Shown one piece after another: positions 2,005-46,951 of a DNA stretch of 64,000 bases. Below the pieces are notes generated by a model that did not search any database, was not told the DNA's origin, and saw nothing but the letters and a program-made list of their open reading frames with translations. The stretch is taken from assembly GCF_024502345.1 (NCBI RefSeq), contig NZ_JALDNN010000001.1. One strand, given 5' to 3'. This DNA comes from Escherichia coli (GTDB lineage Bacteria; Pseudomonadota; Gammaproteobacteria; Enterobacterales; Enterobacteriaceae). Made by a program: the position numbers and the translations under genes. Positions within the stretch are counted from its first letter, which is position 1. Each line of letters opens with the position of its first letter.

Positions 2005-2010
2005 AACTTT

Positions 2011-2049
2011 AAACAAATAGCCATCTTTACATCTAGATGGCTATTTGTT
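2011..2049. terminator. Hairpin with about 14-bp perfect stem between convergent genes; probable bidirectional terminator
   Basis: ACAAATAGCCATCT ... AGATGGCTATTTGT inverted repeat directly after the stop codons of the 321-aa gene and the integrase. Confidence 0.5.
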
Positions 2050-2052
2050 AAT

Positions 2053-3267: not shown

Positions 3268-3706
3268 CGTTGTTTCCTCCTGAAAGCAAGAATGCTTTGA
3301 CAGCCTGGGTTTGTTCGGGTGTCAGGGATAGGGTTTGTTTGGTTGTTTTGATGGTTAAGCCGTAATGCTCTGAGAGGGAAAGTTGAAAGGATTGTTTGGC
3401 CCGTTCCTGGCGACGTTGCTCTCTTTCGTGAGCCTTATCGATTGCAGGATCGTAGCCCTCTTTGATTTTTACTCTGGCTTTATCCCTTAGCACAATGGCT
3501 TCTTTAATCGTGACGTCCGGCCATGCTCCAAATGTGAGGCTTTTCTCCTTCCCCTCTATCCGGTACTTCATCCGCCAGCACTTTGACCCCGTTGGATTCA
3601 CCAACAAAAAGAGCCCTCTGCCGATAGAAAATTTGTAAGGTTTACTACGGGCATCAAGTGACTTTATTATTTGATTATTAATGATTTTTTGTTCTTTTGG
3701 TGGCAT
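3254..3706 (-). pseudogene. Integrase N-terminal fragment (150 codons, arm-binding domain only), stops 14 bp inside the start of the intact integrase
   Basis: Translation MPPKEQKIINNQIIKSLDARSKPYKFSIGRGLFLLVNPTGSKCWRMKYR... resembles P4-type integrase N-termini but lacks the catalytic domain. Confidence 0.6.
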
Positions 3707-7960: not shown

Positions 7961-8012
7961 TCTATTGACGGAATGCCGGGTACGTCTGAGTCGTACCCGG
8001 CGAGATTGATGT

Positions 8013-9722
8013 TTACCGCACCGGCTCCGTCGATGTAACTTCACCGCTGGAAACGATGCCAGCATTCATGGTTTGAGTCACTTGCTGCTTTGCGGCGTTC
8101 ACGGTATGCAATTGCCCGCTAACCGTAGGTTTCAGCGGGGCATTGGCCTGAATATCTCCACTGGCGGTAAGCTGAATATTGCCGTCGCCAGTCAACGGTA
8201 ATTCAGGCCATCCCCATTGTTGCAAAATATTCACCGGCACACCGCGTCCATTCAGGCTGATATGGGTCTGACGTTGTGGCGTTTGTGAAACACTGGCAGT
8301 GGCTTCCAGAATGCCTTTTTCAGTAAATGCACTCAGTTCGCTGATATTCACCGTGCTGCTGTTGGCGGTCAGCGCCAGCGACGGGCGACGAACATCAACA
8401 CGATTGAATGTCGCGGCGGCGGCATTCAGATTCGCCGAGCCACTCCAGACGCCCCATTTATGATCGGTAACCAGCGTCAGGTTGGCACCGTAACCATCGA
8501 GCGCGGTGAGCTGCCACGGGAAGTCAGGGTCGATATCAATGATCAGATTGCGGCTGGCGCTAAATCTCTTCAGTTGCAGGCTGTTTAACCAACCCGGTGT
8601 CGTTTCCATCCACAACTGTTGCCAGTTTTTCGGCAAGGTATATTCCAGCCCGGCAATTGCCGCATCATCAAGGAGTAACGTTTTCCCGTCACGCAGCCAG
8701 TTCCCTGACGTTCTGACCATACCCCCTTCCCAGCGGCTGGTGAACTGGCGCAGCGCTACGCCCTGCGGGGAAAATTCCGCGTTTATAATCGGGTCAAATA
8801 AATGCAGTGAACCATAAATGAACTCGCTGGCGTTCATCGACAGTTTGCCTTCCTGTGTCTGCCAGTCATCTTTACTGAAGGTCATGTTGCGCAAGCTGAG
8901 ATCGAGGTCGGTCACCGCCCAGTCCGGACCTTGCAGACGAGCATCGATCACTTCCAGGCGACCAATCTGCAACGACGGGACAGAGCGTAATGGCGCAAAG
9001 AAGTCGGTTAGCGATTTTTCGCTTTGTAGACGGATATCCGCCATGCGCAGATTTTCCACTTGCCAGCTGCCGTCGGCGTTACGCTGCGCGTTTCCGGTTA
9101 ATGTCCCGCGCGCGATGTCGGCACCCAGGTTAGTCAGCGTAACGCGATCGTTATCAATACTGCCTTCAATCAGTACATTGGTGGCAGGAACATCATTGAG
9201 CGAAAGCGATCCGGCACTAAACTGAATCTGCGCCTTCGTACCCAGCACTTTACCGGCTTCTGGTGACCACGGAACCACGCCGCCATTTACCCGCTGCGCG
9301 CTCAGTTTCCATTCGCTATTCGGGCTATTAAACGCCATATCACGCAGTTGCAGACGATCGGCTTTGAACGGTAGCGGCGCGGTCTGGCCGGTGAGATTCA
9401 GCGTCCCGTTTTCCAGCAGGATGGTATCGACATGGCGTGGTTCGGTCAGTTGCCGACTGCTTAGCGCAATGTCGACACTTTTTGCCACCAGGGTCGCGGG
9501 CTGACCATCACGACCAAACGTGACGTTCTCCAGCACGATATGAGATGGCGCGGAAAAACGGTGATCCATCGCCCCGAAGGCCAGATGATAGTCGCTATTC
9601 TCGGAAACCCATGCGCTGATATGTTCTGCTCCCCAGCGAGTTTGCAGAAGAAAATAGAGGCCAGCGATCACCACTAACAGAGCGATGAGAATGTAGAGAA
9701 GCAGCTTCCCAATAAATTTCAT
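8013..9722 (-). CDS. yicH: AsmA-family protein (569 aa)
   Basis: Translation matches YicH; start set at MKFIGKLLLY. Confidence 0.85.
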   Translation of the reverse strand: MKFIGKLLLYILIALLVVIAGLYFLLQTRWGAEHISAWVSENSDYHLAFGAMDHRFSAPSHIVLENVTFGRDGQPATLVAKSVDIALSSRQLTEPRHVDTILLENGTLNLTGQTAPLPFKADRLQLRDMAFNSPNSEWKLSAQRVNGGVVPWSPEAGKVLGTKAQIQFSAGSLSLNDVPATNVLIEGSIDNDRVTLTNLGADIARGTLTGNAQRNADGSWQVENLRMADIRLQSEKSLTDFFAPLRSVPSLQIGRLEVIDARLQGPDWAVTDLDLSLRNMTFSKDDWQTQEGKLSMNASEFIYGSLHLFDPIINAEFSPQGVALRQFTSRWEGGMVRTSGNWLRDGKTLLLDDAAIAGLEYTLPKNWQQLWMETTPGWLNSLQLKRFSASRNLIIDIDPDFPWQLTALDGYGANLTLVTDHKWGVWSGSANLNAAAATFNRVDVRRPSLALTANSSTVNISELSAFTEKGILEATASVSQTPQRQTHISLNGRGVPVNILQQWGWPELPLTGDGNIQLTASGDIQANAPLKPTVSGQLHTVNAAKQQVTQTMNAGIVSSGEVTSTEPVR

Positions 9723-9842
9723 GGTCTTCCATCCCGTGAAATGCACATAAGGGAGTTATGCACGATTTACGCGCAATCCTCAAGGCGGGAATGGTGAAAG
9801 AGGTGAGACTGCGGCGGTAATTATCTTACCGCCGCCAGTGAA

Positions 9843-11234
9843 TTACTGTTTTTCTGGTGGGAAAATCAGATTCAGCACGATGGCAGTAATACCGCCCGCG
9901 GCGATCCCGGAGGAGAGCAGGTTTTTCAGCCATTCAGGGGCAAACTGCAAAATCAGCGGCTGCTGAGACACGCCCAGACCAACCGCCAGCGACAGCGCGA
10001 TAATCAGAATCGCCCGACGGTTCAGCGGCTCACGAGAAACGATACGCACACCGGAGGCGGCGATGGTGCCAAACATTACAAGCGTTGCGCCGCCCAGAAC
10101 CGGTTCTGGAATGTGTTGTACAAAACCGCTCACTGCCGGGAACAGACCCAGCACGATCAACATCAGCGCGACGACAAAACCGACATAGCGGCTGGCAACA
10201 CCGGTCAACTGGATCACTCCGTTGTTCTGCCCGAAGCAGGAGTTCGGGAAGGTGTTAAACACCGCCGAAACAAACGAGTTCAGGCCGTTTGCCAGCACGC
10301 CGCCTTTCAGGCGTTTCATGTACAGCGGACCGGACACTGGCTGTTCGGAAACGTCAGAGGTCGCCGTGATATCGCCAATGGTTTCCAGCGAAGTGATCAT
10401 AAAGACCAGCATCAGCGGCAGCAGCAGACTCCATTCAATGCCAAGACCGTAATAGAGCGGCGTTGGCACCATAATCAGTTCTTGCGTCATCGGTTCGTTG
10501 CTTTCTGGCAACATGCCCATAAACCACGCCAGCGCATATCCGGCCGCCATCGCAATCACCAGTGAGGCCACGCGTAAGTAAGGGTTACGTTGACGGTTAA
10601 GCAGGATAATTAAGGCTAAGACCACGCCTGCCAGCAGCAGATTTTTCGGTGCGCCGAAGGTGTTATCGCTCATGGCTGCGTAACCGCCGCCAATTGAGGT
10701 CAGCCCCACCTGAATTAGCGACAGGCCGATAATCATCACCACAACGCCAGAAACCAGCGGCGTAATAATGCGGCGCGCCAGATGCAGAACACGGGAGATC
10801 ACCATCTCGGTGCAACTTGCCAGCATCAACGTGCCGAACAAAGCCGCCATCATGGTAGGAACATCAGCACCACCGGTTTTCAGCGCGGTACCGCCCATAA
10901 TCAGCGGGGCAACAAAGTTGAAGCTGGTGCCCTGAATAGACAACAGCCCGGAGCCAACCGGACCCCAGGCCTTAATTTGAATAATCGATGCCACACCGGA
11001 GGCAAACAGCGACATACTAATAATGTGTTGCGTGTCTTGTGCCGGTAAACCCAGCGCCTGGCAGATTAATAGCGCTGGCGTGATCACCGCAACGAACATT
11101 GCCAGCAAATGCTGACAGGCGGCAAACAGGGTTTGAGGAAGCGGCGGACGATCTTCAAGACGGTAAATCAGTTCGCTGTTTTGAGTCTGCGCAACCGGTT
11201 GCGCACTTTCTGACTCGAGGGTGGAAACAGACAT
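9843..11234 (-). CDS. xanP: Xanthine permease, NCS2 family (463 aa)
   Basis: Translation matches XanP (YicE); start at MSVSTLE. Confidence 0.9.
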
Positions 11235-11513
11235 CGAAAACAATCCCGTGGTAGCAAAGCGGGCATTTTAGCTGACCGAAAGAGAAAAGCAAACGTTTGC
11301 TACATCCTCATCTAAATATTTAAATGAGATAAATGCACTTTTTTATATAACTTTTGGTATTTTTCTGCTTAAAATCCATGCCATTTGTTCATTAACAGCT
11401 GAGAATTTGACCCAGGAAAGCATGACTCGATACCCGTCATATTTCATGAAGTTGCCACTGCGCGATGAAGTATGACGAGTATGAAAGAGTGATGCGGATA
11501 CAAAGGAGTAACT

Positions 11514-12719
11514 ATGTTTCATCTCGATACTTTAGCAACGCTTGTTGCCGCAACGCTGACGTTGCTGCTCGGGCGTAAGTTGGTCCATTCCGTCTCCTTT
11601 TTGAAGAAATACACCATACCGGAACCTGTTGCGGGTGGTTTGTTGGTGGCGCTGGCGCTACTGGTACTGAAAAAAAGCATGGGCTGGGAAGTCAACTTTG
11701 ATATGTCCCTGCGCGATCCGTTAATGCTGGCTTTCTTCGCCACCATTGGCCTGAACGCCAACATTGCCAGTTTGCGTGCCGGTGGGCGTGTGGTTGGCAT
11801 CTTCTTGATTGTGGTTGTTGGTCTGTTGGTGATGCAAAATGCCATTGGCATTGGGATGGCTAGCCTGTTAGGGCTTGATCCGCTGATGGGGCTGTTGGCC
11901 GGTTCTATTACGCTTTCCGGCGGTCACGGTACGGGAGCTGCATGGAGTAAATTGTTCATTGAACGTTATGGCTTCACCAATGCGACGGAAGTGGCGATGG
12001 CCTGTGCAACGTTCGGTTTGGTGCTGGGCGGCTTGATTGGCGGTCCGGTAGCGCGCTATCTGGTGAAACACTCCACCACGCCGAACGGTATTCCGGATGA
12101 CCAGGAAGTCCCGACGGCGTTTGAAAAGCCGGATGTGGGCCGCATGATCACCTCGTTGGTGCTGATTGAAACTATCGCGCTGATTGCTATCTGCCTGACG
12201 GTGGGGAAAATTGTTGCGCAACTTTTGGCTGGCACTGCTTTTGAACTGCCGACCTTCGTCTGTGTACTGTTTGTTGGCGTGATTCTGAGCAACGGTCTGT
12301 CAATAATGGGCTTTTACCGCGTCTTTGAGCGTGCGGTATCCGTGCTGGGTAACGTAAGCTTGTCGTTGTTCCTGGCGATGGCGTTGATGGGGCTGAAACT
12401 GTGGGAGCTGGCTTCGCTGGCGCTGCCGATGCTGGCGATTCTGGTGGTACAGACCATCTTCATGGCGTTGTATGCCATCTTCGTTACCTGGCGCATGATG
12501 GGCAAAAACTACGATGCGGCAGTGCTGGCTGCGGGTCACTGTGGTTTTGGCCTCGGTGCAACGCCAACGGCAATCGCCAACATGCAGGCGATCACTGAAC
12601 GTTTTGGCCCGTCGCACATGGCCTTCCTGGTAGTGCCGATGGTCGGTGCGTTCTTTATTGATATCGTTAACGCGCTGGTGATTAAGCTGTATTTGATGTT
12701 GCCGATTTTTGCGGGTTAA
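11514..12719 (+). CDS. gltS: Sodium/glutamate symporter (401 aa)
   Basis: Translation matches GltS. Confidence 0.9.
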   Translation: MFHLDTLATLVAATLTLLLGRKLVHSVSFLKKYTIPEPVAGGLLVALALLVLKKSMGWEVNFDMSLRDPLMLAFFATIGLNANIASLRAGGRVVGIFLIVVVGLLVMQNAIGIGMASLLGLDPLMGLLAGSITLSGGHGTGAAWSKLFIERYGFTNATEVAMACATFGLVLGGLIGGPVARYLVKHSTTPNGIPDDQEVPTAFEKPDVGRMITSLVLIETIALIAICLTVGKIVAQLLAGTAFELPTFVCVLFVGVILSNGLSIMGFYRVFERAVSVLGNVSLSLFLAMALMGLKLWELASLALPMLAILVVQTIFMALYAIFVTWRMMGKNYDAAVLAAGHCGFGLGATPTAIANMQAITERFGPSHMAFLVVPMVGAFFIDIVNALVIKLYLMLPIFAG

Positions 12720-12721
12720 AA

Positions 12722-13588
12722 ATGAAAAAGCGTCGGAAGGAACCGGAAACGCTACGTGAACACTGTCGCCACATTTTTGGTGATGAGCCGCCAGTGCTCT
12801 GTGTATGGGAAACGGAATTTGATTACGCAGATGCCGAACTCAAGGCGCTGGCGGCTAAAGAGTGGCAGCAGATCAGCGAATGGGATTTGAGTGCTTACTA
12901 TGTACTCAATCTCGTTTATAACGAACCGATGCAAATAGAGTTGTTTCGCTATCTGTTTCCGCTCTGCCTGGCGCAATGGCATGAAACCGTTTTAGCTGGC
13001 GGTTATGGTGATCACTTCGAAGAATCCTTAATGAAGGCATTGCGTCGGCCCTATCTCTGGCAGGAGATGATGAATGCTTCCCAACGCCAGCAGGTACGGC
13101 AATTTTTACTGGACACCGCGTTGCAGCGTATGGATAACGAGCGTGGTTTCAATAACGTTCTTTGCTGGCTGGCGGTGTTCAATACTCTGGGTGGGGCCGC
13201 GCCGTTAATTCGTTCTCTCTGGTCGCGCTGGTGGGCGCTGGATACGCCGGGAAAAGCGGTGTGTGCTATTCAGTATGCCGCGCATCTAATTTATCCCATA
13301 GAAGCCAATCCGTTATGGTCGCAAGAATGGATAGGCTGGGGGCATCCATTAGGCCATAAAGATGGCTGGTCCTCTGATAATCGCGCTTTTCTTCGCCAAA
13401 TGTTAACACCTGAAATGATTGTGGCTGGCGTACAGGCAGCGGCTGAAATTCTGCGTGGTGAACCGGAAGGCGCAATGGCGGCGCGAATTGCACAGGATGC
13501 GTATGAGGCAATGGATATCCTCACTATCCAGATTGAAGATTTACTGCGTGACTTGTCTCGTGATGAGTCTGGTCATGCGTTGGAGTAA
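12722..13588 (+). CDS. Hypothetical protein, 288 aa, no recognisable domain; ATG 2 bp after the gltS stop, 3' end overlaps the recG 3' end by 16 bp
   Basis: Long ORF with E. coli-typical codon choice in an intergenic position; not antisense to any known gene. Confidence 0.5.
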   Translation: MKKRRKEPETLREHCRHIFGDEPPVLCVWETEFDYADAELKALAAKEWQQISEWDLSAYYVLNLVYNEPMQIELFRYLFPLCLAQWHETVLAGGYGDHFEESLMKALRRPYLWQEMMNASQRQQVRQFLLDTALQRMDNERGFNNVLCWLAVFNTLGGAAPLIRSLWSRWWALDTPGKAVCAIQYAAHLIYPIEANPLWSQEWIGWGHPLGHKDGWSSDNRAFLRQMLTPEMIVAGVQAAAEILRGEPEGAMAARIAQDAYEAMDILTIQIEDLLRDLSRDESGHALE

Positions 13589-15654
13589 CGTTCCGTCTCC
13601 GGCATCCAGCGTTCTATCAAGGCTTTTGCCTGTTGTGGGTAACGTTCGTGAATATGTCGCGCCAGGCGCTGAACTTCCGGGATCATCGCCTGATCGCGCA
13701 GTAAATCCGCCACTTTAAATTCAGCATTACCCGTCTGACGCGTGCCTAACAATTCGCCAGGGCCGCGAATCTCCAGATCTTTTTGCGCAATCACAAAACC
13801 GTCGTTACTGTCGCGCAGCACTTGCAGGCGAATTTGCGCCGTTTTAGAAAGCGGCGTTTTGTAGAGCAGCACGCAGTGAGAAGCCACCGCGCCACGACCT
13901 ACGCGCCCGCGCAGCTGGTGTAACTGCGCCAGACCCAGACGCTCAGGGTTTTCGATAATCATCAGGCTGGCGTTAGGCACATCAACACCGACTTCAATAA
14001 CGGTAGTGGCAACCAGCAGATGTAGCTCACCTTGTTTAAACGACGCCATCACCGCCTGTTTCTCGGCTGGTTTCATCCGCCCGTGTACCAGGCCAACATT
14101 CAATTCTGGTAGCGCCAGTTTCAACTCTTCCCAGGTAGCTTCCGCCGCCTGCGCTTCCAGTAACTCTGACTCTTCAATCAACGTACAAACCCAGTACGCC
14201 TGACGACCTTCAGTTATGCAGGCGTGGCGCACGCGGTCAATGATGTCGGTACGGCGAGTATCAGGAATAGCGACCGTAGTCACTGGCGTGCGGCCTGGCG
14301 GCAGTTCATCAATGACCGAGGTGTCGAGATCGGCATACGCAGTCATCGCCAGCGTGCGGGGGATCGGCGTGGCGGTCATGATCAACTGATGCGGATGGAA
14401 GCCTTGCTGCTGGCCTTTCTCCCACAATGCCAGACGCTGATGCACGCCAAAGCGATGCTGTTCGTCGATAATCACCAGCGCCAGGCCGTTAAACTGCACC
14501 TGTTCCTGGAAGATGGCGTGTGTTCCGACAATCATCTGCACCTGACCGCTGGCGATGGCTTCCTGCTGTGCCAGCCGCGCTTTACCTTTCTGCTTACCGG
14601 CGAGCCAGCCCACTTCGATACCGAGCGGTGCAAACCAGTTACGGAAGTTATTGGCGTGCTGTTCGGCGAGTAATTCGGTTGGTGCCATCAATGCCACCTG
14701 TTTGCCGTGGGCAATCGCACGCAGCGCGGCGAGGGCAGCGACCAGCGTTTTACCGGAACCTACATCGCCCTGTACCAGGCGCATCATCGGCACATTCAGC
14801 GCCATATCGCGCTCGATCTCCGCCACCACGCGAGCCTGAGCGCCCGTTGGCTTGAACGGTAAGGCGGCAAGAAGTTTATTTTTCAGCGTGTCATTGGCGC
14901 TCAGCGGCTGGGCATGGAAACGTTGCGCTCCGGCGCGTAAGGCTAACATGCTGAGGTTATGCGCCAGCAGTTCTTCCAGAATCAGACGACGTTGCGTCGG
15001 ATGCTGCCCGGTTTCCAGATCGCTAAGTTGCAGCGTCGGCGGCGGGCGGTGCAAAGTGCGCAACGCTTCCGGTAGCGTCATCATTCCTTGTGACAGTTCC
15101 GGCGGCAGGAGTTCTTCAATGGCGCAGGTGTCGAGCAGATCCAGCGCCTGGTCGGTTAATTTACGCAGCGTGGCCTGCTTTACGCCTTCGGTTGTTGGAT
15201 AAACCGGCGTGAGCGTTTCCTGCAACTCTGGCGTACTGAGATCGCCCTGCACGCGGTATTCCGGGTGGATCATCTCCGCACCATATTTACCGCGCTTTGC
15301 TTCTCCATAGGCCAGCACGCGGCGGCCCGTCGCCAGGCTATTTTTCATTGCCGCGTTGAAGTTGAAAAAGCGCATGGTGAGAATGCCGGAACCGTCGCTG
15401 ATCTGGCAGGTCATCATCCGCCGACCGCCGAAGGAGATATTGCAGTTCAGCACTTCGCCTTCCACCGTGGCATAAACGCCCGGTAGTAGTTCTCCGATGG
15501 GGTAGAGATGGGTGCGATCTTCGTAGCGCAGGGGAAGGTGTAACAGTAGATCCTGCACGGTATGCAGGTTGATTTTCGCCAGTTTGTTACTAAGTGCTGC
15601 GCCAACGCCCGTTAGGGAACTGAGTGGGACAGCATCTAACAGGCGACCTTTCAT
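13573..15654 (-). CDS. recG: ATP-dependent DNA helicase RecG (693 aa)
   Basis: Translation matches RecG; start at MKGRLLDAVPL. Confidence 0.9.
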   Translation of the reverse strand: MKGRLLDAVPLSSLTGVGAALSNKLAKINLHTVQDLLLHLPLRYEDRTHLYPIGELLPGVYATVEGEVLNCNISFGGRRMMTCQISDGSGILTMRFFNFNAAMKNSLATGRRVLAYGEAKRGKYGAEMIHPEYRVQGDLSTPELQETLTPVYPTTEGVKQATLRKLTDQALDLLDTCAIEELLPPELSQGMMTLPEALRTLHRPPPTLQLSDLETGQHPTQRRLILEELLAHNLSMLALRAGAQRFHAQPLSANDTLKNKLLAALPFKPTGAQARVVAEIERDMALNVPMMRLVQGDVGSGKTLVAALAALRAIAHGKQVALMAPTELLAEQHANNFRNWFAPLGIEVGWLAGKQKGKARLAQQEAIASGQVQMIVGTHAIFQEQVQFNGLALVIIDEQHRFGVHQRLALWEKGQQQGFHPHQLIMTATPIPRTLAMTAYADLDTSVIDELPPGRTPVTTVAIPDTRRTDIIDRVRHACITEGRQAYWVCTLIEESELLEAQAAEATWEELKLALPELNVGLVHGRMKPAEKQAVMASFKQGELHLLVATTVIEVGVDVPNASLMIIENPERLGLAQLHQLRGRVGRGAVASHCVLLYKTPLSKTAQIRLQVLRDSNDGFVIAQKDLEIRGPGELLGTRQTGNAEFKVADLLRDQAMIPEVQRLARHIHERYPQQAKALIERWMPETERYSNA

Positions 15655-34623: not shown

Positions 34624-35682
34624 GTGGATAAGCCATTTCGAAGAATTTTGCTCATTAAGATGCGTTTTCATGGGGATATGTTATTAACTACTCCCGTCAT
34701 TAGTTCGCTGAAAAAAAATTACCCTGACGCAAAAATCGATGTGCTGCTTTATCAGGACACCATCCCGATCCTGTCTGAAAATCCAGAGATTAACGCGCTC
34801 TACGGCATAAAAAATAAAAAAGCAAAAGCCTCAGAAAAAATTGCCAACTTTTTTCATCTCATCAAGGTATTACGTGCCAATAAGTATGACCTTATCGTCA
34901 ATCTTACCGATCAATGGATGGTTGCTATACTGGTTCGCTTATTAAATGCCCGTGTGAAAATTTCCCAGGATTATCATCATCGGCAGTCTGCTTTTTGGCG
35001 TAAAAGTTTCACCCATTTGGTGCCGTTGCAGGGTGGAAATGTGGTGGAAAGTAACTTATCCGTGCTGACACCATTGGGACTTGATTCGTTGGTGAAGCAG
35101 ACAACCATGAGTTACCCGCCTGCAAGCTGGAAACGTATGCGTCGCGAACTTGATCACGCTGGTGTTGGACAAAATTATGTGGTTATCCAACCTACGGCGC
35201 GGCAAATCTTCAAATGCTGGGACAACGCCAAGTTTTCCGCTGTGATTGATGCCTTACATGCTCGTGGTTATGAAGTCGTTCTGACGTCCGGCCCAGATAA
35301 AGACGATCTGGCCTGCGTCAATGAAATTGCGCAGGGATGCCAGACGCCACCAGTAACGGCGCTGGCTGGAAAGGTGACCTTCCCGGAACTTGGTGCGTTA
35401 ATCGATCATGCGCAGCTGTTTATTGGCGTTGATTCCGCACCGGCGCATATTGCCGCTGCAGTTAATACGCCGCTGATATCGCTGTTTGGTGCGACAGACC
35501 ATATTTTCTGGCGTCCCTGGTCAAATAACATGATTCAATTCTGGGCGGGAGATTACCGGGAAATGCCAACGCGCGATCAGCGTGACCGAAATGAGATGTA
35601 TCTTTCGGTTATTCCGGCGGCAGATGTCATTGCTGCTGTCGATAAATTACTGCCCTCCTCCACGACAGGTACGTCGTTATGA
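34624..35682 (+). CDS. waaQ: LPS core heptosyltransferase III
   Basis: Translation matches WaaQ; exact start uncertain (GTG at 34624 or downstream ATG). Confidence 0.85.
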   Translation: MDKPFRRILLIKMRFHGDMLLTTPVISSLKKNYPDAKIDVLLYQDTIPILSENPEINALYGIKNKKAKASEKIANFFHLIKVLRANKYDLIVNLTDQWMVAILVRLLNARVKISQDYHHRQSAFWRKSFTHLVPLQGGNVVESNLSVLTPLGLDSLVKQTTMSYPPASWKRMRRELDHAGVGQNYVVIQPTARQIFKCWDNAKFSAVIDALHARGYEVVLTSGPDKDDLACVNEIAQGCQTPPVTALAGKVTFPELGALIDHAQLFIGVDSAPAHIAAAVNTPLISLFGATDHIFWRPWSNNMIQFWAGDYREMPTRDQRDRNEMYLSVIPAADVIAAVDKLLPSSTTGTSL

Positions 35683-36803
35683 TCGTTGCTTTTTGTTTAT
35701 ATAAATATTTTCCCTTTGGCGGTTTGCAGCGCGATTTTATGCGTATTGCTCAGACAGTCGCCGCCCGAGGTCATCATGTTCGGGTTTATACCCAGTCGTG
35801 GGAAGGCGAATGCCCTGATGTATTTGAACTGATCAAAGTGCCGGTTAAATCGCATACCAATCACGGGCGCAATGCGGAGTATTTTGCCTGGGTGCAAAAA
35901 CATTTACGCGAACATCCCGTCGATAAAGTCGTTGGATTCAACAAAATGCCGGGGCTGGACGTTTATTATGCCGCTGATGTTTGTTATGCCGAGAAAGTAG
36001 CGCAGGAAAAAGGCTTTTTCTATCGCCTGACGTCACGTTATCGCCATTATGCCGCCTTTGAGCGGGCAACCTTCGAACAGGGCAAGCCGACACAGCTGCT
36101 GATGCTGACAGATAAGCAAATCGCCGATTTCCGGAAACATTATCAGACTGAAGCGGAGCGTTTTCATATTCTGCCACCGGGGATTTATCCTGATCGTAAA
36201 TATAGCCAGCAGCCAGCCAATAGCCGTGAAATCTTCCGTAAGAAGAATGGAATAACCGAACAACAATATTTATTGTTGCAGGTCGGTTCAGACTTCACGC
36301 GTAAAGGTGTCGATCGTTCCATTGAAGCACTTGCTTCGTTACCGGATTCGCTGCGCCACAACACATTGCTATATGTTGTTGGGCAGGATAAACCGCGAAA
36401 ATTTGAGGCACTGGCAGAAAAACGCGGCGTGCGCAGTAATGTTCACTTCTTCTCGGGGCGCAACGATGTCTCGGAATTAATGGCGGCGGCGGATTTATTA
36501 CTGCATCCTGCCTACCAGGAAGCGGCGGGAATTGTGCTGCTGGAAGCGATTACTGCAGGATTACCGGTACTAACAACTGCCGTTTGTGGCTATGCGCATT
36601 ATATTGTCGACGCTAATTGCGGCGAGGCTATTGCTGAGCCATTCCGCCAGGAAACATTGAATGAGATTTTACGCAAAGCGTTAACGCAATCTTCATTGCG
36701 CCAGGCTTGGGCGGAAAATGCGCGACATTATGCTGATACACAAGATTTATACAGTCTGCCAGAGAAAGCGGCGGATATCATAACGGGTGGTCTGGATGGT
36801 TGA
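35679..36803 (+). CDS. waaG: LPS core glucosyltransferase I, GT4 (374 aa)
   Basis: Translation matches WaaG. Confidence 0.9.
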
Positions 36804-37593
36804 ACTTAAAGAGCCGTTTGCCACGTTATGGCGCGGCAAAGATCCTTTTGAGGAAGTTAAAACCTTGCAGGGTGAGGTATTTCGTGAACTGGAAACTCGC
36901 CGTACTCTGCGCTTCGAAATGGCGGGCAAAAGCTATTTTCTCAAATGGCATCGCGGCACGACCCTGAAAGAGATAATCAAAAATTTACTCTCATTGCGGA
37001 TGCCAGTATTAGGCGCAGACCGCGAATGGGATGCGATTCATCGACTGCGGGATGTCGGCGTTGATACTATGTATGGGGTGGCATTCGGCGAAAAAGGCAT
37101 GAATCCGCTGACCAGAACCTCGTTTATTATTACCGAAGATCTGACACCAACCATCAGTCTGGAAGATTACTGTGCTGACTGGGCGACCAACCCACCAGAT
37201 GTTCGCGTAAAGCGTATGCTTATTAAGCGTGTCGCGACGATGGTGCGCGATATGCATGCTGCGGGCATTAACCATCGTGACTGTTATATCTGTCATTTCC
37301 TGCTGCACTTGCCTTTTTCCGGTAAGGAAGAGGAGTTAAAAATTTCGGTAATTGACCTACACCGGGCGCAGCTTCGCACGCGCGTTCCACGTCGTTGGCG
37401 CGATAAAGATCTTATAGGGCTTTATTTTTCTTCAATGAATATTGGCCTGACTCAGCGGGATATCTGGCGCTTTATGAAGGTGTATTTTGCCGCCCCGCTT
37501 AAAGACATTCTCAAGCAGGAACAAGGACTGCTGTCGCAAGCAGAAGCAAAAGCCACAAAAATCAGGGAAAGAACGATTCGAAAATCGTTGTAA
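36796..37593 (+). CDS. waaP: LPS core heptose(I) kinase (265 aa)
   Basis: Translation matches WaaP. Confidence 0.9.
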
Positions 37594-37635
37594 CCCGTAA
37601 CTTATTTTTGCCAAAATTTTGGATACAGAATAAAT

Positions 37636-38643
37636 ATGTCTCAACTCAATGATAGTGACATCATCCTTTTTGAGTATAATTTTCATTATCAAAATATAAG
37701 ATCTAAAAATACTCTTGATATAGCATTTGGTATTGACAGAAATTTTCTTTTTGGATGTGGTGTAGCCATCGCATCTATTCTATTAAACAATAGAGAAATC
37801 TCTTGTGAATTTCATGTTTTCACAGATTATATCAGTGATAAAGACAAATTATATTTTTCTGATTTAGCAAAACAATATAATTCAAGAATTAATATTTATG
37901 TTATCAATTGTGATAAGCTGAAGTCATTACCAAGCACGAAAAACTGGACTTACGCAACATATTTTCGATTTATAATTGCAGATTATTTCTATCATAAACA
38001 TGAAAAAATACTATATCTTGATGCAGATATTGCTTGCAAGGGTAGTATTAAAGAACTCTTAGATTATCAATTTTCTACTAATGAAATTGCCGCAGTTGTA
38101 GCTGAAAGAGATGTTGAATGGTGGCAAAATCGAGCCTCGGTATTAACTACACCACAGTTAGCTTCTGGATATTTCAATGCTGGTTTTTTACTGATAAATA
38201 TTGATGAGTGGAATCTAAATAACATTTCGTCAAAAGCTATTGAAATGTTGCGTGACCCAGATTGGGTAAGTAAAATCACCCACCTTGATCAAGATGTACT
38301 GAATGTATTATTGAATGGTAAAGTGAAGTTTATTTCGGAGAAATATAATACCCGATATAGTATTAACTATGAATTAAAAGACAAAGTTGATAATCCAGTC
38401 AATGATGACACCGTGTTTATACACTATGTGGGACCTACAAAACCCTGGCATGAGTGGGCTGACTATCCGGTGTCACGTAGTTTTTTGATCGCCAAAGCAG
38501 CTTCTCCGTGGAGTAAAGAAGATTTACTTAAACCTGTAAATAGCAATCAGTATCGGTATTGTGCAAAACATAAATTTAAACAAAAGCATTATATGGCAGG
38601 CATTTTTAATTATTTAAAGTATTATAAAGAAAAATGCTTCTAA
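37636..38643 (+). CDS. LPS core glycosyltransferase, family GT8 (335 aa); WaaI-like by position
   Basis: GT8-type sequence features; low-GC variable part of the waa cluster; specific name from gene order only. Confidence 0.7.
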   Translation: MSQLNDSDIILFEYNFHYQNIRSKNTLDIAFGIDRNFLFGCGVAIASILLNNREISCEFHVFTDYISDKDKLYFSDLAKQYNSRINIYVINCDKLKSLPSTKNWTYATYFRFIIADYFYHKHEKILYLDADIACKGSIKELLDYQFSTNEIAAVVAERDVEWWQNRASVLTTPQLASGYFNAGFLLINIDEWNLNNISSKAIEMLRDPDWVSKITHLDQDVLNVLLNGKVKFISEKYNTRYSINYELKDKVDNPVNDDTVFIHYVGPTKPWHEWADYPVSRSFLIAKAASPWSKEDLLKPVNSNQYRYCAKHKFKQKHYMAGIFNYLKYYKEKCF

Positions 38644-38668
38644 AGATTTAAGGTTAAAATAATTCATT

Positions 38669-39376
38669 ATGATATATAATAAAACGATAAATGGGTTGAA
38701 AGTTTTCATAAAAGATAATGATCCCTTTTATGAGCAAGTTCTAAATGACTTTTTAACTTGCAGGGTTAAAACATTAAAAGTTTTTCGTTCTATTGATGAT
38801 ACTAAAGTCATTCTTATTGACACTGCTCGTGGACCTCTTGTACTTAAAGTTTATGCACCAAAGCATAAAATGACCGAACGTTTCTTAAAATCTTGCATAA
38901 AAAAAGATTATTATGAAAATTTAATTTATCAAACCGATCGGGTACGTGGTGAAGGCATCCAATCAATTAATGACTATTTTTTGCTAGCTGAACGTAAAAC
39001 ATTAAATTTCGCTCATTATTATATTATGCTCATTGAGTATATTGAAGGTGTCGGGTTAAATGAGTATTTGGAAATTTCTGAAGATCTGAAGGATCAATTA
39101 TCAGAATCGATAAAAGAGTTGCATCAGCATGGAATGGTGTCTGGCGATCCTCATAAAGGAAATTTTATAGTATCCGAAAAAGGTTTAAGACTAATTGACC
39201 TTTCAGGTAAAAAAACAACCGCTGTTTTAAAAGCAAAAGATCGCATTGATCTTGAACGGCACTATAATATAAAAAATGAATTGAAAGACTTTGGCTATAC
39301 ATATCTTATATTCAAAAAGAAAATTAAAAAAGTAATCAGGGATGTAAAAGTCAAACTAGGATTGAAGAGCAAATAA
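38669..39376 (+). CDS. waaY: LPS core heptose(II) kinase (235 aa)
   Basis: Translation shares conserved blocks with WaaY (KVFRSIDDTKV, HQHGMVSGDPH.GNF, RIDLERHY). Confidence 0.8.
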   Translation: MIYNKTINGLKVFIKDNDPFYEQVLNDFLTCRVKTLKVFRSIDDTKVILIDTARGPLVLKVYAPKHKMTERFLKSCIKKDYYENLIYQTDRVRGEGIQSINDYFLLAERKTLNFAHYYIMLIEYIEGVGLNEYLEISEDLKDQLSESIKELHQHGMVSGDPHKGNFIVSEKGLRLIDLSGKKTTAVLKAKDRIDLERHYNIKNELKDFGYTYLIFKKKIKKVIRDVKVKLGLKSK

Positions 39377-39400
39377 TGATTATGATGAAGGGTAATTAAA

Positions 39401-40414
39401 TTGGATTTTAAACATCTTACTCAATTTAAAGATATAATTGAACTGGACAAGCGCCCCGTTAAACTTGATGAACGGGAAACGTTTAATGTCTCATGGGGTA
39501 TTGATGAGAACTACCAGGTTGGGGCTGCGATTTCAATTGCTTCAATTCTTGAAAATAATAAACAAAACAAATTTACCTTTCACATAATCGCTGATTACTT
39601 AGACAAAGAGTATATTGAATTATTATCACAATTAGCAACGAAGTATCAAACAGTAATTAAATTATATCATATTGATTCTGAGCCATTGAAGGCGCTACCT
39701 CAATCAAATATCTGGCCAGTATCTATTTATTATCGTTTGCTTTCATTTGATTATTTTTCTGCGCGATTGGATTCATTATTATATCTTGATGCTGATATCG
39801 TCTGTAAGGGTTCATTGAACGAGTTAATAGCATTAGAGTTTAAAGATGAATATGGGGCAGTGGTAATTGATGTAGATGCTATGCAAAGTAAAAGCGCTGA
39901 GCGTTTGTGTAATGAGGATTTTAACGGTAGCTATTTTAACTCTGGTGTAATGTATATTAATTTACGGGAATGGTTAAAACAAAGACTAACGGAAAAATTC
40001 TTTGATCTATTATCAGATGAGTCAATTATAAAAAAATTAAAGTACCCGGATCAAGATATTTTAAACTTAATGTTTCTACATCATGCTAAAATATTACCGA
40101 GAAAATATAATTGTATTTATACTATAAAGTCAGAATTTGAAGAAAAAAATAGTGAATATTACACCCGGTTTATTAATGATGACACTGTCTTCATACATTA
40201 TACTGGTATAACTAAGCCATGGCATGATTGGGCGAACTACGCCTCTGCAGATTATTTTCGTAATATTTATAATATATCACCATGGAGAAATATACCTTAT
40301 AAAAAAGCTGTTAAAAAACATGAGCACAAAGAAAAATATAAACACTTGCTTTACCAGAAAAAATTTCTCGATGGTGTTTTTACAGCAATTAAATATAATG
40401 TTATGAAAGGTTAA
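39401..40414 (+). CDS. LPS core glycosyltransferase, family GT8 (337 aa); WaaJ-like by position
   Basis: Paralogous to the GT8 at 37636; specific name from gene order only. Confidence 0.7.
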   Translation: MDFKHLTQFKDIIELDKRPVKLDERETFNVSWGIDENYQVGAAISIASILENNKQNKFTFHIIADYLDKEYIELLSQLATKYQTVIKLYHIDSEPLKALPQSNIWPVSIYYRLLSFDYFSARLDSLLYLDADIVCKGSLNELIALEFKDEYGAVVIDVDAMQSKSAERLCNEDFNGSYFNSGVMYINLREWLKQRLTEKFFDLLSDESIIKKLKYPDQDILNLMFLHHAKILPRKYNCIYTIKSEFEEKNSEYYTRFINDDTVFIHYTGITKPWHDWANYASADYFRNIYNISPWRNIPYKKAVKKHEHKEKYKHLLYQKKFLDGVFTAIKYNVMKG

Positions 40415-40422
40415 TATACGAG

Positions 40423-41565
40423 ATGGTTGATAAAATAATATTTACGGTTACTCCTATTTTTTCAATTCCTCCTCGCGGAGCGGCTGCTGTTGAAACGTGG
40501 ATGTATCAGGTTGCTCAGCGTACCAATTTTCCAAATCGTATTGTTTGTATCAAAAATCCAGGATACTCAAATTACACCTTTGTTAATGATAATTGTAGTA
40601 TTCATAGGGTTGGATTCAGTCGCATATATAAGCGGTTATTTCAAAAATGGACAAGACTTGATCCTCTTCCATATTCACAGAGAATATTGAATATTGCACA
40701 TGATTTTCCTATAACGAAAGAAAGTGTTATTGTAGTTCATAATAGCATGAAGCTATACACTCAAATTCGTAAGCGAGCTCCTCAGGCAAGAGTGGTTATA
40801 CATATGCATAATGCATTTGAACCAAAATTGCTTGAGCAAAATGTTAAAATGATAGTGCCTAGTTTATACTTGAAAAAGTATTACCAATCTTATTTAGCAA
40901 ATGCAGATATTGAGATTGTACCAAATGGAATTGATTTAGAAACCTATCAATCTAATTTTCAGCCGATCACTAGAAGCGAACTTAATATCTCCCCTGAAGA
41001 GAAAATTATTTTTTATGCTGGGCGTATCGTCCCTGACAAAGGCATATTGCTGTTGATGCAATCATTCGAAAAATTGGCCGCTGCTCACAAAAATTTAAAA
41101 TTAGTTGTGATTGGTGATTATACAGAAATGAGTAAAAGTGACAAAGGTGCATATCAACGCAATGTCAGGGAAATTGCAAAACGTTTGAAGGATCGTTGCA
41201 TTATGTTAGGAAGCATACCGCCTGAAAAGATGCATTGTTATTACCCACTGGCAGATTTAGTCGTCATTCCTTCCCAGTTCCAGGAACCATTTTGCATGGT
41301 GGCAATTGAAGCTATGGGTGCTGGTAAGCCTGTTTTAGTGAGTACGCGTGGGGGGATGACGGAATTTGTCAAAGAAAATACTACGGGATTCCATTTAAAA
41401 GAACCTATGACTGCAGACTCCATAAGCAGCGATATTTTAAAAACGTTAGCGAATCCTGAATTAACAGCAGTTGCAAAGCAAGGTCAGGACTTTGTGTTTA
41501 ATCACTACAGTTGGGATGGCGTAACTCAAAGATTCGAAGAGGTTATTCATAATTGGTTTGAATAA
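40423..41565 (+). CDS. LPS outer-core glycosyltransferase, family GT4 (380 aa); WaaD/WaaK-like by position
   Basis: GT4 C-terminal signature (PSQFQEPFCMVAIEAMGAGKPVLVS); last gene of the long waa operon. Confidence 0.7.
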   Translation: MVDKIIFTVTPIFSIPPRGAAAVETWMYQVAQRTNFPNRIVCIKNPGYSNYTFVNDNCSIHRVGFSRIYKRLFQKWTRLDPLPYSQRILNIAHDFPITKESVIVVHNSMKLYTQIRKRAPQARVVIHMHNAFEPKLLEQNVKMIVPSLYLKKYYQSYLANADIEIVPNGIDLETYQSNFQPITRSELNISPEEKIIFYAGRIVPDKGILLLMQSFEKLAAAHKNLKLVVIGDYTEMSKSDKGAYQRNVREIAKRLKDRCIMLGSIPPEKMHCYYPLADLVVIPSQFQEPFCMVAIEAMGAGKPVLVSTRGGMTEFVKENTTGFHLKEPMTADSISSDILKTLANPELTAVAKQGQDFVFNHYSWDGVTQRFEEVIHNWFE

Positions 41566-41600
41566 ATAAAAAGGCCGCATTATGCAGCCTTTTTTATTTT

Positions 41601-42809
41601 TTACTTGTTTTTCATCGCTAATAATAAGCCGGCGTAAACGCCTAATAAATTTGGTTCAATTTGTTCTACGTTTCCACGGATAACAAAATAACCTATAAAA
41701 GATAGTAAGATTATATAATATGCATTATATGGTGAGCGATATTTATTCTTGACACCATTTTTTATACACTCTTTCAATATTGCACAGTATAGCATCATAA
41801 GACTTACCAGCCCTAATAAACCAGTGCCAAACCAGATGAATAGCGCAAAATTATGTGGCCCTATTGATTGTCTAAAGGTCCATTCTGGATAATCAATGAC
41901 ACGTTTATTATAGACATCTTTATATGCAACGTTACCGTAACCATAACCAATAACAGGATTTTCTAATATTAGATCGAGTGCGCTGCCTTGAGTACCATTT
42001 GCATAGCGATAAGAACTATTAGTTTGTTGAAGTTTATACGTTAGCTTTGCGGTCATCTCCTTATGTGTGAAAATAACCGACAATGCAATGATGGCAACCA
42101 TTACTCCTACTAATAGTAACTTCCATTGTTTAAACATCAGAATCCATATTAATCCAATGACTAACACGGAAAGCCAGGCCCCTCTGGATAAAGTTCCTAA
42201 TATCAGAAAAATAAAAATAACGCTTAGAACCACAAAAGAAATGCGGTATTTTGCTGATTTGATAAGCCAGAGATTTAACAATGCAGGGAATAAAAAGACC
42301 ATCGAGTCAGAAATGCTACGGTGTCTATAATCTGCGAATGGCATTATCCCTTGTTGATAGTCCTTATAATAGGTAATCAATTCAGAAAAACAGCGTAAGC
42401 CCAACGCACTAATAAATGAGAAGAAAACGATTTTTTCGACATCTTCTCTTTTCTCGTCTCTCAATATGATCGGTATTGCTATTGTGCATAGTAAAGTATT
42501 CTCAATAATAGCTTTGAAAATTTCCTTCATGCTAGCACCTGCATCAGGGGATTGAAGAAGTGACAGCAATGCAGCAATAGTTAATATGGCAACACTACCA
42601 AAAAGAAATGTTTTAAATAGTGAGAGATAGTGTTTTGGCCGTTTGCAGAGATAGACGATTGTCGTTATTGTCATAAGAATAACAATAAGATGTTTATACC
42701 TTGTAATCCCACCCAAAAAATAGGTGGTAATGAATAAGAATACGAGAGCTCTGTTCCAGTACGCTATCCAGTTTTTTTTCTCGAGAGAGAAAAATAATGT
42801 TGAGGTCAT
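41601..42809 (-). CDS. waaL: O-antigen ligase (402 aa), polytopic membrane protein
   Basis: Highly hydrophobic, low-GC ORF convergent with the waaQ operon and upstream of waaC. Confidence 0.8.
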   Translation of the reverse strand: MTSTLFFSLEKKNWIAYWNRALVFLFITTYFLGGITRYKHLIVILMTITTIVYLCKRPKHYLSLFKTFLFGSVAILTIAALLSLLQSPDAGASMKEIFKAIIENTLLCTIAIPIILRDEKREDVEKIVFFSFISALGLRCFSELITYYKDYQQGIMPFADYRHRSISDSMVFLFPALLNLWLIKSAKYRISFVVLSVIFIFLILGTLSRGAWLSVLVIGLIWILMFKQWKLLLVGVMVAIIALSVIFTHKEMTAKLTYKLQQTNSSYRYANGTQGSALDLILENPVIGYGYGNVAYKDVYNKRVIDYPEWTFRQSIGPHNFALFIWFGTGLLGLVSLMMLYCAILKECIKNGVKNKYRSPYNAYYIILLSFIGYFVIRGNVEQIEPNLLGVYAGLLLAMKNK

Positions 42810-43798
42810 CTTATCTCCGATGTCAATTTATTGGTTATTATTTCAAGATTTAAATTTTGAAAAACGGTTTGAGCTGGCAAATCTGCAAGAGACATACTTG
42901 TAGAACGACACTCTACTTGATTCTTCCCATACCCACCAATTAATCCCGGATCGGTTGGTCCATAAACCGTGATATTGGGTCTATCCAGTGCCGCCGTTAA
43001 ATGGCTTAACCCCGTATCCACCGACACTACAAATTTAGCCCCGGCCAGCACGCGGGCAACGCCTTCCAGACTCATCTTCGGCAATACTTCAACATAAGCA
43101 AATCCTTCCGCCAGTCGTTTCGCCCGTTCTTCCTCATGCGGCGCGCCCCACGGAAGTTTAATCCGTATTCCTGAATCAGCCAGTAAACCAATCAATTCTC
43201 GCCAGTGTTCTTCCGGCCAGTGTTTATCATCACGGGTCGTCGCATGAAGAAATACGGCATATTCGCCAGCATCTGTAGGCAGGTTCGTCAGAAAATGCTG
43301 TGCGATAGCATAATCGCCCTGGGTTTGCGGTTTGCTATAGCCCAAACTTTTGGCAAACAGTTCGCGGGTGCGTTCTACGGCGTGCTGCTGTTTTGCAATA
43401 TGATGCTTACGATTGTAAAACAGGCTGGCTAAAGGTTCGCGAGCGGTTTGCCAGTCCATGCCATGCTTTACGCCATGCGCCAGACGCGTCACCAGCGCCG
43501 CGCTTTTTACCAGCCCCTGAGCGTCGATAACTGCGTCATAGTTCTCTGCTTGTAGCGCTTCACGAAACGCTTTGCGTTCAGCTTTTATAGGGGCCGAGAA
43601 CCAGGCTTTACGCCAGCGACGTATTGCCACAGGAATAACTCGCTCAACGGCAGCGTGCCAGGAAGGAATCTGTGCGAACCCTTCTTCCACCACCCAGTCA
43701 AACTTAATTTCTGGGATTGCCTGCTGGGCATCAGTGAGTGCGGGCAACGTATGGAGAACATCGCCCATCGACGATGTTTTAACGATCAAAACCCGCAT
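42806..43798 (-). CDS. waaC: LPS heptosyltransferase I (330 aa); C-terminus differs from the K-12 protein
   Basis: Translation matches WaaC over most of its length, then diverges (...GYGKNQVECRSTSMSLADLP...). Confidence 0.9.
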   Translation of the reverse strand: MRVLIVKTSSMGDVLHTLPALTDAQQAIPEIKFDWVVEEGFAQIPSWHAAVERVIPVAIRRWRKAWFSAPIKAERKAFREALQAENYDAVIDAQGLVKSAALVTRLAHGVKHGMDWQTAREPLASLFYNRKHHIAKQQHAVERTRELFAKSLGYSKPQTQGDYAIAQHFLTNLPTDAGEYAVFLHATTRDDKHWPEEHWRELIGLLADSGIRIKLPWGAPHEEERAKRLAEGFAYVEVLPKMSLEGVARVLAGAKFVVSVDTGLSHLTAALDRPNITVYGPTDPGLIGGYGKNQVECRSTSMSLADLPAQTVFQNLNLEIITNKLTSEIR

Positions 43799-45790: not shown

Positions 45791-46093
45791 AACTGTAACC
45801 TTCGAATTATGGAGTCAGAGACAATCTCAGACACGAATGTCTGTAATCATACCATCACATCCGAATCCCTTCAGCCCTTTACATAGAGGTGCAAGGATGC
45901 TAATTGCAACAAACTAGTTTGGGATTTAGCTAGTCCTTCATGGCGGATGTTGGTTTTGCATGTGAATAGTGCTTTAGTATCAATATTCCGATGTATGATA
46001 AATAACGGAAGCATTTGAATGGATAATATACAGTATACATTCTGTTAATATTTATGATATAATTCTTTTTTTATATTAATGGTCTTATTAGTA

Positions 46094-46951
46094 ATGAAAT
46101 CATCCACCACAATTATCACTGCATATTTTGACATTGGTAGAGGGGATTGGACTGCTAATAAAGGGTTCCGTGAAAAACTAGCTCGTTCAGTTGATGTTTA
46201 TTTTAGTTACTTTGAGCGTCTGGCCGCACTTGAAAATGAGATGATTATTTTCACTTCTCCCGATTTGAAACCAAGGGTTGAAGCGATTCGCAACGGAAAA
46301 CCAACAACGGTTATCGTTATCGATATAAAAAAGAAATTTAGATATATCAGAAGTCGTATCGAAAAAATTCAAAAAGATGAGTCGTTTACAAATAGACTTG
46401 AGCCTCGACAATTAAAAAACCCAGAGTACTGGTCACCAGAGTATGTTTTGGTATGTAACCTTAAGGCCTATTTTGTAAATAAAGCTATCAACATGGGCTT
46501 AGTGAAAACGCCTCTTGTTGCGTGGATAGATTTTGGCTATTGCCGTAAGCCAAATGTAACTCGAGGATTGAAAATTTGGGATTTCCCATTTGATGAAAGT
46601 AAGATGCATCTTTTCACTATAAAAAAAGGGCTTACTGTCACATCTCAACAACAGGTTTTTGATTTCATGATTGGCAATCATGTATATATTATTGGGGGCG
46701 CAATTGTTGGTTCACAGCATAAATGGAAAGAATTCTATAAATTAGTTCTGGAAAGTCAAAAAATAACACTAAATAATAACATTGTGGATGATGACCAGGG
46801 CATTTTTGTCATGTGCTATTACAAACGCCCCGATCTCTTCAACCTAAACTATCTGGGGAGAGGAAAATGGTTCGATTTGTTTCGCTGCTTCAGGAGTAAC
46901 ACTTTAGGGGCAAAAATGCAGGCGCTGAGAATTTTCCTTTCAAGAAAATAG
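46094..46951 (+). CDS. htrL: HtrL/YibB-family protein (285 aa)
   Basis: Translation and position between hldD and kbl match htrL; low GC. Confidence 0.8.
   Translation: MKSSTTIITAYFDIGRGDWTANKGFREKLARSVDVYFSYFERLAALENEMIIFTSPDLKPRVEAIRNGKPTTVIVIDIKKKFRYIRSRIEKIQKDESFTNRLEPRQLKNPEYWSPEYVLVCNLKAYFVNKAINMGLVKTPLVAWIDFGYCRKPNVTRGLKIWDFPFDESKMHLFTIKKGLTVTSQQQVFDFMIGNHVYIIGGAIVGSQHKWKEFYKLVLESQKITLNNNIVDDDQGIFVMCYYKRPDLFNLNYLGRGKWFDLFRCFRSNTLGAKMQALRIFLSRK

Follow-up and report, generated by a model that had tools for sequence, protein, structure and literature searches.

Where do the conserved inner-core genes of the Escherichia coli waa locus give way to the region that differs between lipopolysaccharide (LPS) core types? 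The question is raised by waaC (rfaC), the gene for LPS heptosyltransferase I, which lies at positions 42806..43798 on the minus strand of a 64,000-nucleotide (nt) stretch of E. coli DNA (RefSeq assembly GCF_024502345.1, contig NZ_JALDNN010000001.1), hereafter called the window. An earlier note, made from the sequence alone, had claimed that the translation follows the K-12 protein up to GYGKNQ and then departs from it, and that the divergent end probably marks the recombination boundary between the conserved inner-core genes and the type-specific region. The gene is an R3-type allele, an open reading frame (ORF) of 330 amino acids (aa). Its product scored 634 bits against the NCBIfam RfaC equivalog NF008204 (cutoff 437) and 432 bits against TIGR02193 (cutoff 185), matched the solved E. 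coli WaaC (2GT1/6DFE) with E = 3.6e-203, and is annotated as rfaC in genomes that are 99.5-99.9% identical to the window. The RfaC profile match spans aa 1-320, with the last 10 aa beyond the profile. D13, K192, and D261-T262-G263, which we take to be active-site positions with a catalytic role, were all present, and their columns were at least 90% conserved among 115 homologues.

The window protein ends in ...GYGKNQVECRSTSMSLADLPAQTVFQNLNLEIITNKLTSEIR before the stop, which is also how the earlier note had quoted it, whereas the 319-aa WaaC of K-12 (O16:H48 genome, locus L001) ends in ...GYGKNQMVCRAPRENLINLNSQAVLEKLSSL. The identical K-12 C-terminus that would have refuted the note was not found. 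Comparison of the two genes confirmed the departure after GYGKNQ. Over the first 881 nt there were 4 mismatches (0.45%), whereas from nt 882 onward 39 of 72 ungapped positions differed (54%), with third-codon positions near saturation (14 of 23 differing). The mismatches per 30-nt block across the junction were 0, 0, 0, and 0, then 16 and 17, and the contrast between head and tail gave a Fisher p of about 1e-44. Ungapped counts were used for the tails, because gaps in so short and AT-rich a sequence inflate the gapped nt identities (0.70-0.82). The switch point is waaC nt 881/882, or window 42918/42917, inside the interval 42806-42920 in which the divergent end had been placed. The gene therefore divides into a conserved head (nt 1-881, aa 1-294, 42918..43798, minus strand) and an R3-type-specific tail (nt 882-993, aa 295-330 VECRSTSMSLADLPAQTVFQNLNLEIITNKLTSEIR plus the stop, 42806..42917, minus strand), and GC content falls at the junction from 0.52 in the head to 0.33 in the tail, a drop of 19 points. 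We also considered MVCRAPGNELSQ... as the K-12 tail and rejected it, as it belongs to the crystallised R1 protein; the K-12 tail is MVCRAPRENLINLNSQAVLEKLSSL.

The same boundary appeared at the population level. In a megablast search with waaC plus waaL as the query, waaC was matched in 5,423 of 5,426 complete E. coli genomes. Both genes were matched at full length in 1,363 of these, which are the R3 type, while in the non-R3 genomes among the matches listed the alignment ended at query nt 881 or 884. With the same R3 tail in 1,362-1,363 complete genomes, the tail is not a sequencing artefact. A sequencing or frameshift error was also rejected on other grounds: more than 1,100 genomes have the identical tail, the reading frame is intact, a C-R...L..L.A..V pattern is retained, and a helix is modelled. 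It is also uniform within the type, since a variant with 23 head differences from the window had a single change in the 112 nt of the tail.

To see how the other core types end, we aligned the 3' ends of waaC from K-12 (L001), R3 (L002), R1 (L003, L006, and L007), R4 (L004), and R2 (L005). The five types have a common head and each its own tail. All WaaC proteins agreed up to Q294, and after GYGKNQ each type continued with its own 24-36 residues. The heads were 96-100% identical at the nt level across core types, whereas the tails shared 33-50% aa identity. The R3 tail was 33-46% identical in aa to the other E. coli tails, and its ungapped nt mismatch against them was 43-60%. K-12, R1, R2, and R4 remained alike for about 20 nt past nt 881 (M/V-V-C-R-A-P) and then diverged from one another, whereas R3 departs at once after nt 881 and is the outlier among the core types. 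R1-type WaaC itself occurs in two lengths, 326 aa (...EENAENAAMI) and 323 aa (...EENAAMI), in L003 and L006 versus L007; they differ by one copy of the 9-nt unit GAAAACGCT at waaC nt about 950-970, a small tandem-repeat indel.

Linkage between each tail and the DNA behind it was assessed with one query per type, consisting of the tail plus about 300 nt downstream, at a coverage of at least 80%. This unit was found in 1,362 genomes for R3, 1,031 for K-12, 1,831 for R1, 500 for R2, and 692 for R4. Summed over the five types, tail type went with the downstream type-specific sequence in 5,416 of about 5,424 genomes, and about 8 genomes, such as TR01, E6, N921, and 98224, showed partial coverage.

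Head and tail also have different relatives. The R1 strain 2002-3211 had 0 mismatches to the window over the 881 nt of the head, yet carried an R1 tail, while the R3 strain SE11 differed from the window at 9 head sites; the histories of head and tail therefore disagree. An exchange within the tail itself was seen in the O157:H7 strain TR01 (L008, NZ_CP033605.1; waaC at locus 2620-3612). Its tail is chimeric, being R1-like over nt 882-928 (MVCRAPGNELSQLTA) and R3 thereafter, and at nt 864/867 its waaC reads GGC GGA, like that of R2 and R4 strains. The chimeric stretch, which corresponds to window 42870-42935, looks like a short gene-conversion patch of about 65 nt across the boundary, but may be an assembly artefact. 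The chimeric R1/R3 tail argues that crossovers occur in this region. Taken together, an abrupt change in divergence, conflicting ancestry, and a compositional shift were found at one and the same point, which is what defines a mosaic junction.

The tail is the right-hand end of a longer block. Judged by its gene order and by its 99.5-99.9% identity to the SE11, O157:H7, and O104:H4 genomes, the window carries the R3 core type. As in the R3 waa locus of these strains, hldD-waaF-waaC-waaL faces waaQGP-I/O-Y-J-D, so that waaI(O)-waaY-waaJ-waaD converges with hldD-waaF-waaC-waaL. The waaC and waaL genes match at 99.5-99.9% nt identity, with the same 330-aa WaaC (for example RefSeq WP_001264565.1) and the same 4-bp overlap, and there is no substantive difference beyond a few single-nucleotide polymorphisms, 9 of them in the head against SE11. 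GC profile, ORFs, SE11 annotation, and alignment edges placed the R3 low-GC cassette (GC 0.27-0.41) at 37594..42917, covering both strands, within a low-GC block from about 37500 to 42900; the cassette is about 5.3 kb long. At the left edge, the match to most non-R3 genomes ended at 37593, where the waaP stop codon ends, and some of them aligned only to 37489, about 104 nt before that. The conserved flanking genes waaP and waaC both point into the cassette, and from these alignment edges the type-specific DNA starts either at their 3' ends or about 100 nt within them.

Relatives of the tail outside E. coli were sought with the last 79 aa as a protein query, which returned 161 short fragments of similar length and is not an exhaustive search for donors. 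The closest tail found outside E. coli was that of Atlantibacter hermannii, VECRSVSKDLADLSASTVFEQLNVEIINTHK, with 19 of 31 aa identical to the R3 tail. An A. hermannii locus (L009, positions 6011-13892 of the metagenome-assembled genome GCA_002432765.1) was picked via WaaF and WaaL cluster names. Its layout is R3-like, with a waaC tail beginning VECRS..., a 403-aa WaaL, one GT4 and two GT8 glycosyltransferase genes, waaP, waaG, and waaQ. It differs in belonging to another genus, in flanks of 79-81% nt identity, in the lack of waaY, and in the end of waaC, where a TAG stop lies 14 nt before waaL without overlap. R3 WaaL was 68% identical in aa to A. hermannii WaaL, against 22-51% to the WaaL of other E. 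coli types, and the WaaJ and WaaI of A. hermannii were 75% and 71% identical to those of the window. When R3 was compared with an A. hermannii-type contig having the same WaaC C-terminus (L010), the head was 76.6% and the tail 72.2% identical in nt, with no discontinuity. Because the tail and WaaL are nearer to A. hermannii and the step between head and tail is missing in that comparison, the tail tracks the lineage of the cassette and not the species. As separate observations, the waaD-like GT4 gene of A. hermannii is split into two ORFs, and E. coli RfaC proteins of 319-330 aa appear in the same 90%-identity protein cluster as A. hermannii RfaF, which is a database clustering oddity and not biology.

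The 3' regions of R3 and A. hermannii-type waaC shared a single identical stretch of at least 15 nt. This 22-nt run, TAATTGGTGGGTATGGGAAGAA (LIGGYGKN), occupies waaC nt 857-878 (42921..42942, minus strand), just upstream of the junction, and its position makes it a candidate natural crossover site. RecA-dependent exchange has a minimal homology of roughly 25 bp.

What lies beyond the junction is the least constrained part of the protein. Among 120 WaaC C-terminal fragments from Enterobacterales, TDPGLIGGYGKNQ was near-invariant, and the sequence beyond it was hypervariable with a loose C-R...L..L.A..V pattern kept. Across 110 distant full-length homologues, conservation was 2.5-3.2 bits per column at residues 256-285, then 1.6, 1.4, and 0.7 over the last three 15-residue blocks, and the nearly invariant family columns ended at G288. 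An AlphaFold2 model built on a 115-sequence alignment had a mean pLDDT (predicted local distance difference test score) of 96.5, with 72 over the last ten residues. The predicted structure has the GT-B two-domain fold of solved WaaC, and its tail consists of a strand (294-298), a short turn, and a helix (309-329). It superposed on 2H1H, 2GT1, and 6DFE with a root mean square deviation of 1.1-1.2 Å over 320-324 columns, tail included, and template modelling (TM) scores of 0.95-0.97. The solved E. coli WaaC/HepI structures (2GT1, 2H1F, 2H1H, and 6DFE) carry the R1-type tail MVCRAPGNELSQLTANAVKQFIEENAEKAAMI; the window protein is about 99% identical to them over residues 1-294 and about 37% identical in the tail, and exceeds the 326-aa R1-type protein by 4 residues. 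On this model, the tail still has a structural part to play, supplying the GT-B fold with its final strand and C-terminal helix under little sequence constraint, and the tails of the five types are predicted to be homologous and to retain the fold despite their divergence, rather than being unrelated sequences.

The R3 tail has one further peculiarity at its very end. The overlap with waaL that had been noticed earlier is real: the ORFs share ATGA (tcat on the given strand; 42806..42809, minus strand), in which the waaL start ATG occupies 42809-42807 and the waaC stop TGA 42808-42806. The same overlap is annotated in SE11, TR01, and EF5-18-41. Alignments assigned the last codons of R3 waaC, TTG ACA TCG GAG ATA AGA TGA (LTSEIR followed by the stop; 42806..42826, minus strand), to a read-through extension. 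The TTG at 42824-42826 aligned with the TAG stop of waaC in both A. hermannii and contig L011; in the latter the TAG lies 13 nt before the waaL ATG. The extension codons contain the waaL Shine-Dalgarno sequence GGAG (42815-42818), and the LTSEIR residues lie outside the RfaC profile. We infer from these alignments that a stop loss from TAG to TTG created the R3 overlap, so that WaaC would read six codons through the waaL ribosome-binding site. The overlap probably couples the translation of waaL to that of waaC. A consensus scan of the minus strand gave no promoter-like match within the tail, and hits in the region were fewer than in shuffled sequences; an internal waaL promoter in the tail was rejected for lack of such a match.

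How did waaC come to have two parts? We consider it likely, with a probability of roughly 85%, that the gene is a mosaic, in which 881 nt come from the conserved flank (hldD-waaF-waaC) and the last 112 nt from an R3 cassette exchanged by recombination, the tail being a passenger. The junction is placed at nt 881/882 on four independent lines, namely the stop of the alignments, the linkage of tail and downstream DNA, the same head with different tails, and the GC drop, and these lines uphold the boundary between conserved inner-core genes and type-specific region that the earlier note had suspected. The cassette that defines the core type would comprise the waaC tail, waaL, waaD, waaJ, waaY, and waaI. 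Core types would move between E. coli lineages through homologous recombination with crossovers in the conserved flanks, and with crossovers there, flank DNA would be homogenised species-wide up to the first base at which old cassette alleles differ. The right-hand limit of this homogenised flank would fall just after the codons for the invariant TDPGLIGGYGKNQ, beyond which only the last beta-strand and the C-terminal helix remain, parts that appear tolerant of extensive sequence change. The tail would then most likely travel with waaL as a passenger, its fold kept, and R3 would additionally have lost its stop, gaining the six codons and the ATGA overlap.

Divergence of the tail in place, within E. 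coli and without recombination, through relaxed constraint or diversifying selection, would agree with the finding that nowhere in WaaC, in Enterobacterales and beyond, is constraint weaker than in the stretch after GYGKNQ. However, such a process within one species cannot explain third-codon differences at 14 of 23 sites beside 0.45% divergence in the adjoining 881 nt, a 19-point GC shift at the same base, identical heads with different tails, or an R3 tail that resembles the tail of another genus more than those of other E. coli types, and we regard it as barely credible. A second view starts from waaL, whose expression signals might impose the divergence, the true cassette boundary then being the waaL start. 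It is in keeping with the overlap of the last 6 R3 waaC codons with the waaL Shine-Dalgarno sequence and start, but the divergence begins 112 nt upstream of the waaC stop, far past any ribosome-binding site, the R1 and R4 tails are type-specific although their waaL lies on the opposite strand, and the tail has no minus-strand promoter-like site. This highly improbable view is refuted as a full explanation and is valid only for window 42806-42826.

Selection might instead keep tail and cassette together, if the C-terminal helix contacts WaaL, the outer-core transferases, or the membrane. The near-complete linkage and the well-conserved R3 tail, with its single change beside 23 head differences, are what such co-adaptation would produce. 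But physical adjacency, with 0-70 nt to the next type-specific sequence, accounts for the linkage with no need of selection, none of the known catalytic or substrate-binding residues follows G288, and TR01 is an isolate with a natural R1/R3 chimeric tail. The WaaC step, heptosyl transfer to the acceptor Kdo2-lipid A, is moreover common to all core types. On balance co-adaptation is very unlikely. A more specific form of it, in which the helix docks to type-specific partners (WaaL or the outer-core transferases) in a membrane-associated complex and the R3 overlap sets the dosage of WaaL, is likewise very unlikely; if it held, a switch of core type would fail without co-transfer of the waaC tail.

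Several points nevertheless weigh against a mosaic with a passenger tail. The perfect linkage of tail and waaL would equally fit functional co-adaptation, and the linkage counts are BLAST coverage summaries and not genome-by-genome inspections. The alignments behind the mosaic case cover eight loci, and the population data are BLAST summaries. Among the short fragments retrieved, A. hermannii gave the closest relative of the tail, though not necessarily the closest existing one, the direction of the stop-codon change rests on two outgroup sequences only, and structural equivalence was read from an AlphaFold model whose training set held E. coli WaaC structures.

The remaining cassette genes of the window (ORFs 37636-41565) are colinear with the annotated SE11 locus. 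On the plus strand these are waaI/waaO (37636-38643), waaY (38669-39376), waaJ (39401-40414), and waaD (40423-41565), the last of which scored 770 bits, above the cutoff, against NF012028. The minus strand carries waaL (rfaL; 41601..42809), an R3-type O-antigen ligase of 402 aa with 693 bits against NCBIfam RfaL NF012031. This waaL is 99.5-100% identical in nt to that of SE11, O157:H7, and O104:H4, and R3 WaaL has 22-25% aa identity to the WaaL of K-12, R1, and R4 and 51% to that of R2. In the 35-nt gap between the convergent waaL (ending at 41601) and waaD (ending at 41565), the consensus scan placed a terminator-like hairpin with a 12-bp stem and a T-run (41568..41594, minus strand), likely a bidirectional terminator.

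A few observations concern the surroundings of the cassette and other loci. Window 35600-38600 went unmatched by megablast in about 955 of the 5,426 genomes, which points to a diverged waaQ-G-P allele group. Between kbl and hldD the window has yibB/htrL, a 290-aa ORF at 46079-46951 on the plus strand with GC 0.32-0.36. The K-12 and R3 (SE11, TR01) loci have it as well, whereas all the R1, R2, and R4 loci fetched lack it, and there kbl abuts hldD. This is a second presence/absence polymorphism next to the waa locus, and it seems to correlate with core type. In the R1 locus of E. coli B REL606 (L003, 11171-12881), one GT8 outer-core gene is interrupted by IS1A, in agreement with the truncated core known in B strains.

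The modular waa locus has already been published, and the 330-aa RfaC allele is already in RefSeq. According to Leclercq et al. (2021), GC content matches the core genome at the conserved waaDFC and waaA flanks and falls markedly across the variable genes between them, and this central region is exchanged through homologous recombination (PMC8715443). A 2025 typing study reported K-12/R2 hybrid loci and one R1/R4 hybrid (PMC13293308). The window agrees with this model in its conserved waaDFC flank, its central GC drop, and core types that are not fixed to phylogeny. Both papers type by waaL and mention waaC 0 times, whereas here the right edge is mapped within waaC and the left edge at the waaP stop. 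A literature search, to which older papers of the Whitfield laboratory were out of reach, found no paper naming a junction at waaC codon 294. What is added here is the location of the junction to the base pair, the extension of R3 waaC into the waaL ribosome-binding site through stop loss, and the chimeric tail in one O157:H7 genome. The central region has been said to be without homologues outside Escherichia and Shigella (PMC8715443), a statement that may need revisiting given the R3-like locus of A. hermannii.

The recombination edge in waaC is thus a real but ordinary mosaic boundary of an already understood kind, and it does not challenge the current understanding of the locus. By its tail, E. 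coli WaaC falls into five classes (318-330 aa), and these are as reliable a predictor of the LPS core type as waaL. Differences in RfaC annotation length are genuine alleles and not errors, which is useful for annotation and typing. Structural and inhibitor work on HepI used the R1-type protein, while about a quarter of the complete genomes searched, including O157:H7 and O104:H4, carry a different last strand and helix. Finally, the right edge of the cassette is fixed to one base pair, directly after the codons of the invariant motif, and illustrates how the possible starting point of an exchangeable surface-antigen cassette is set by purifying selection on the gene beside it.

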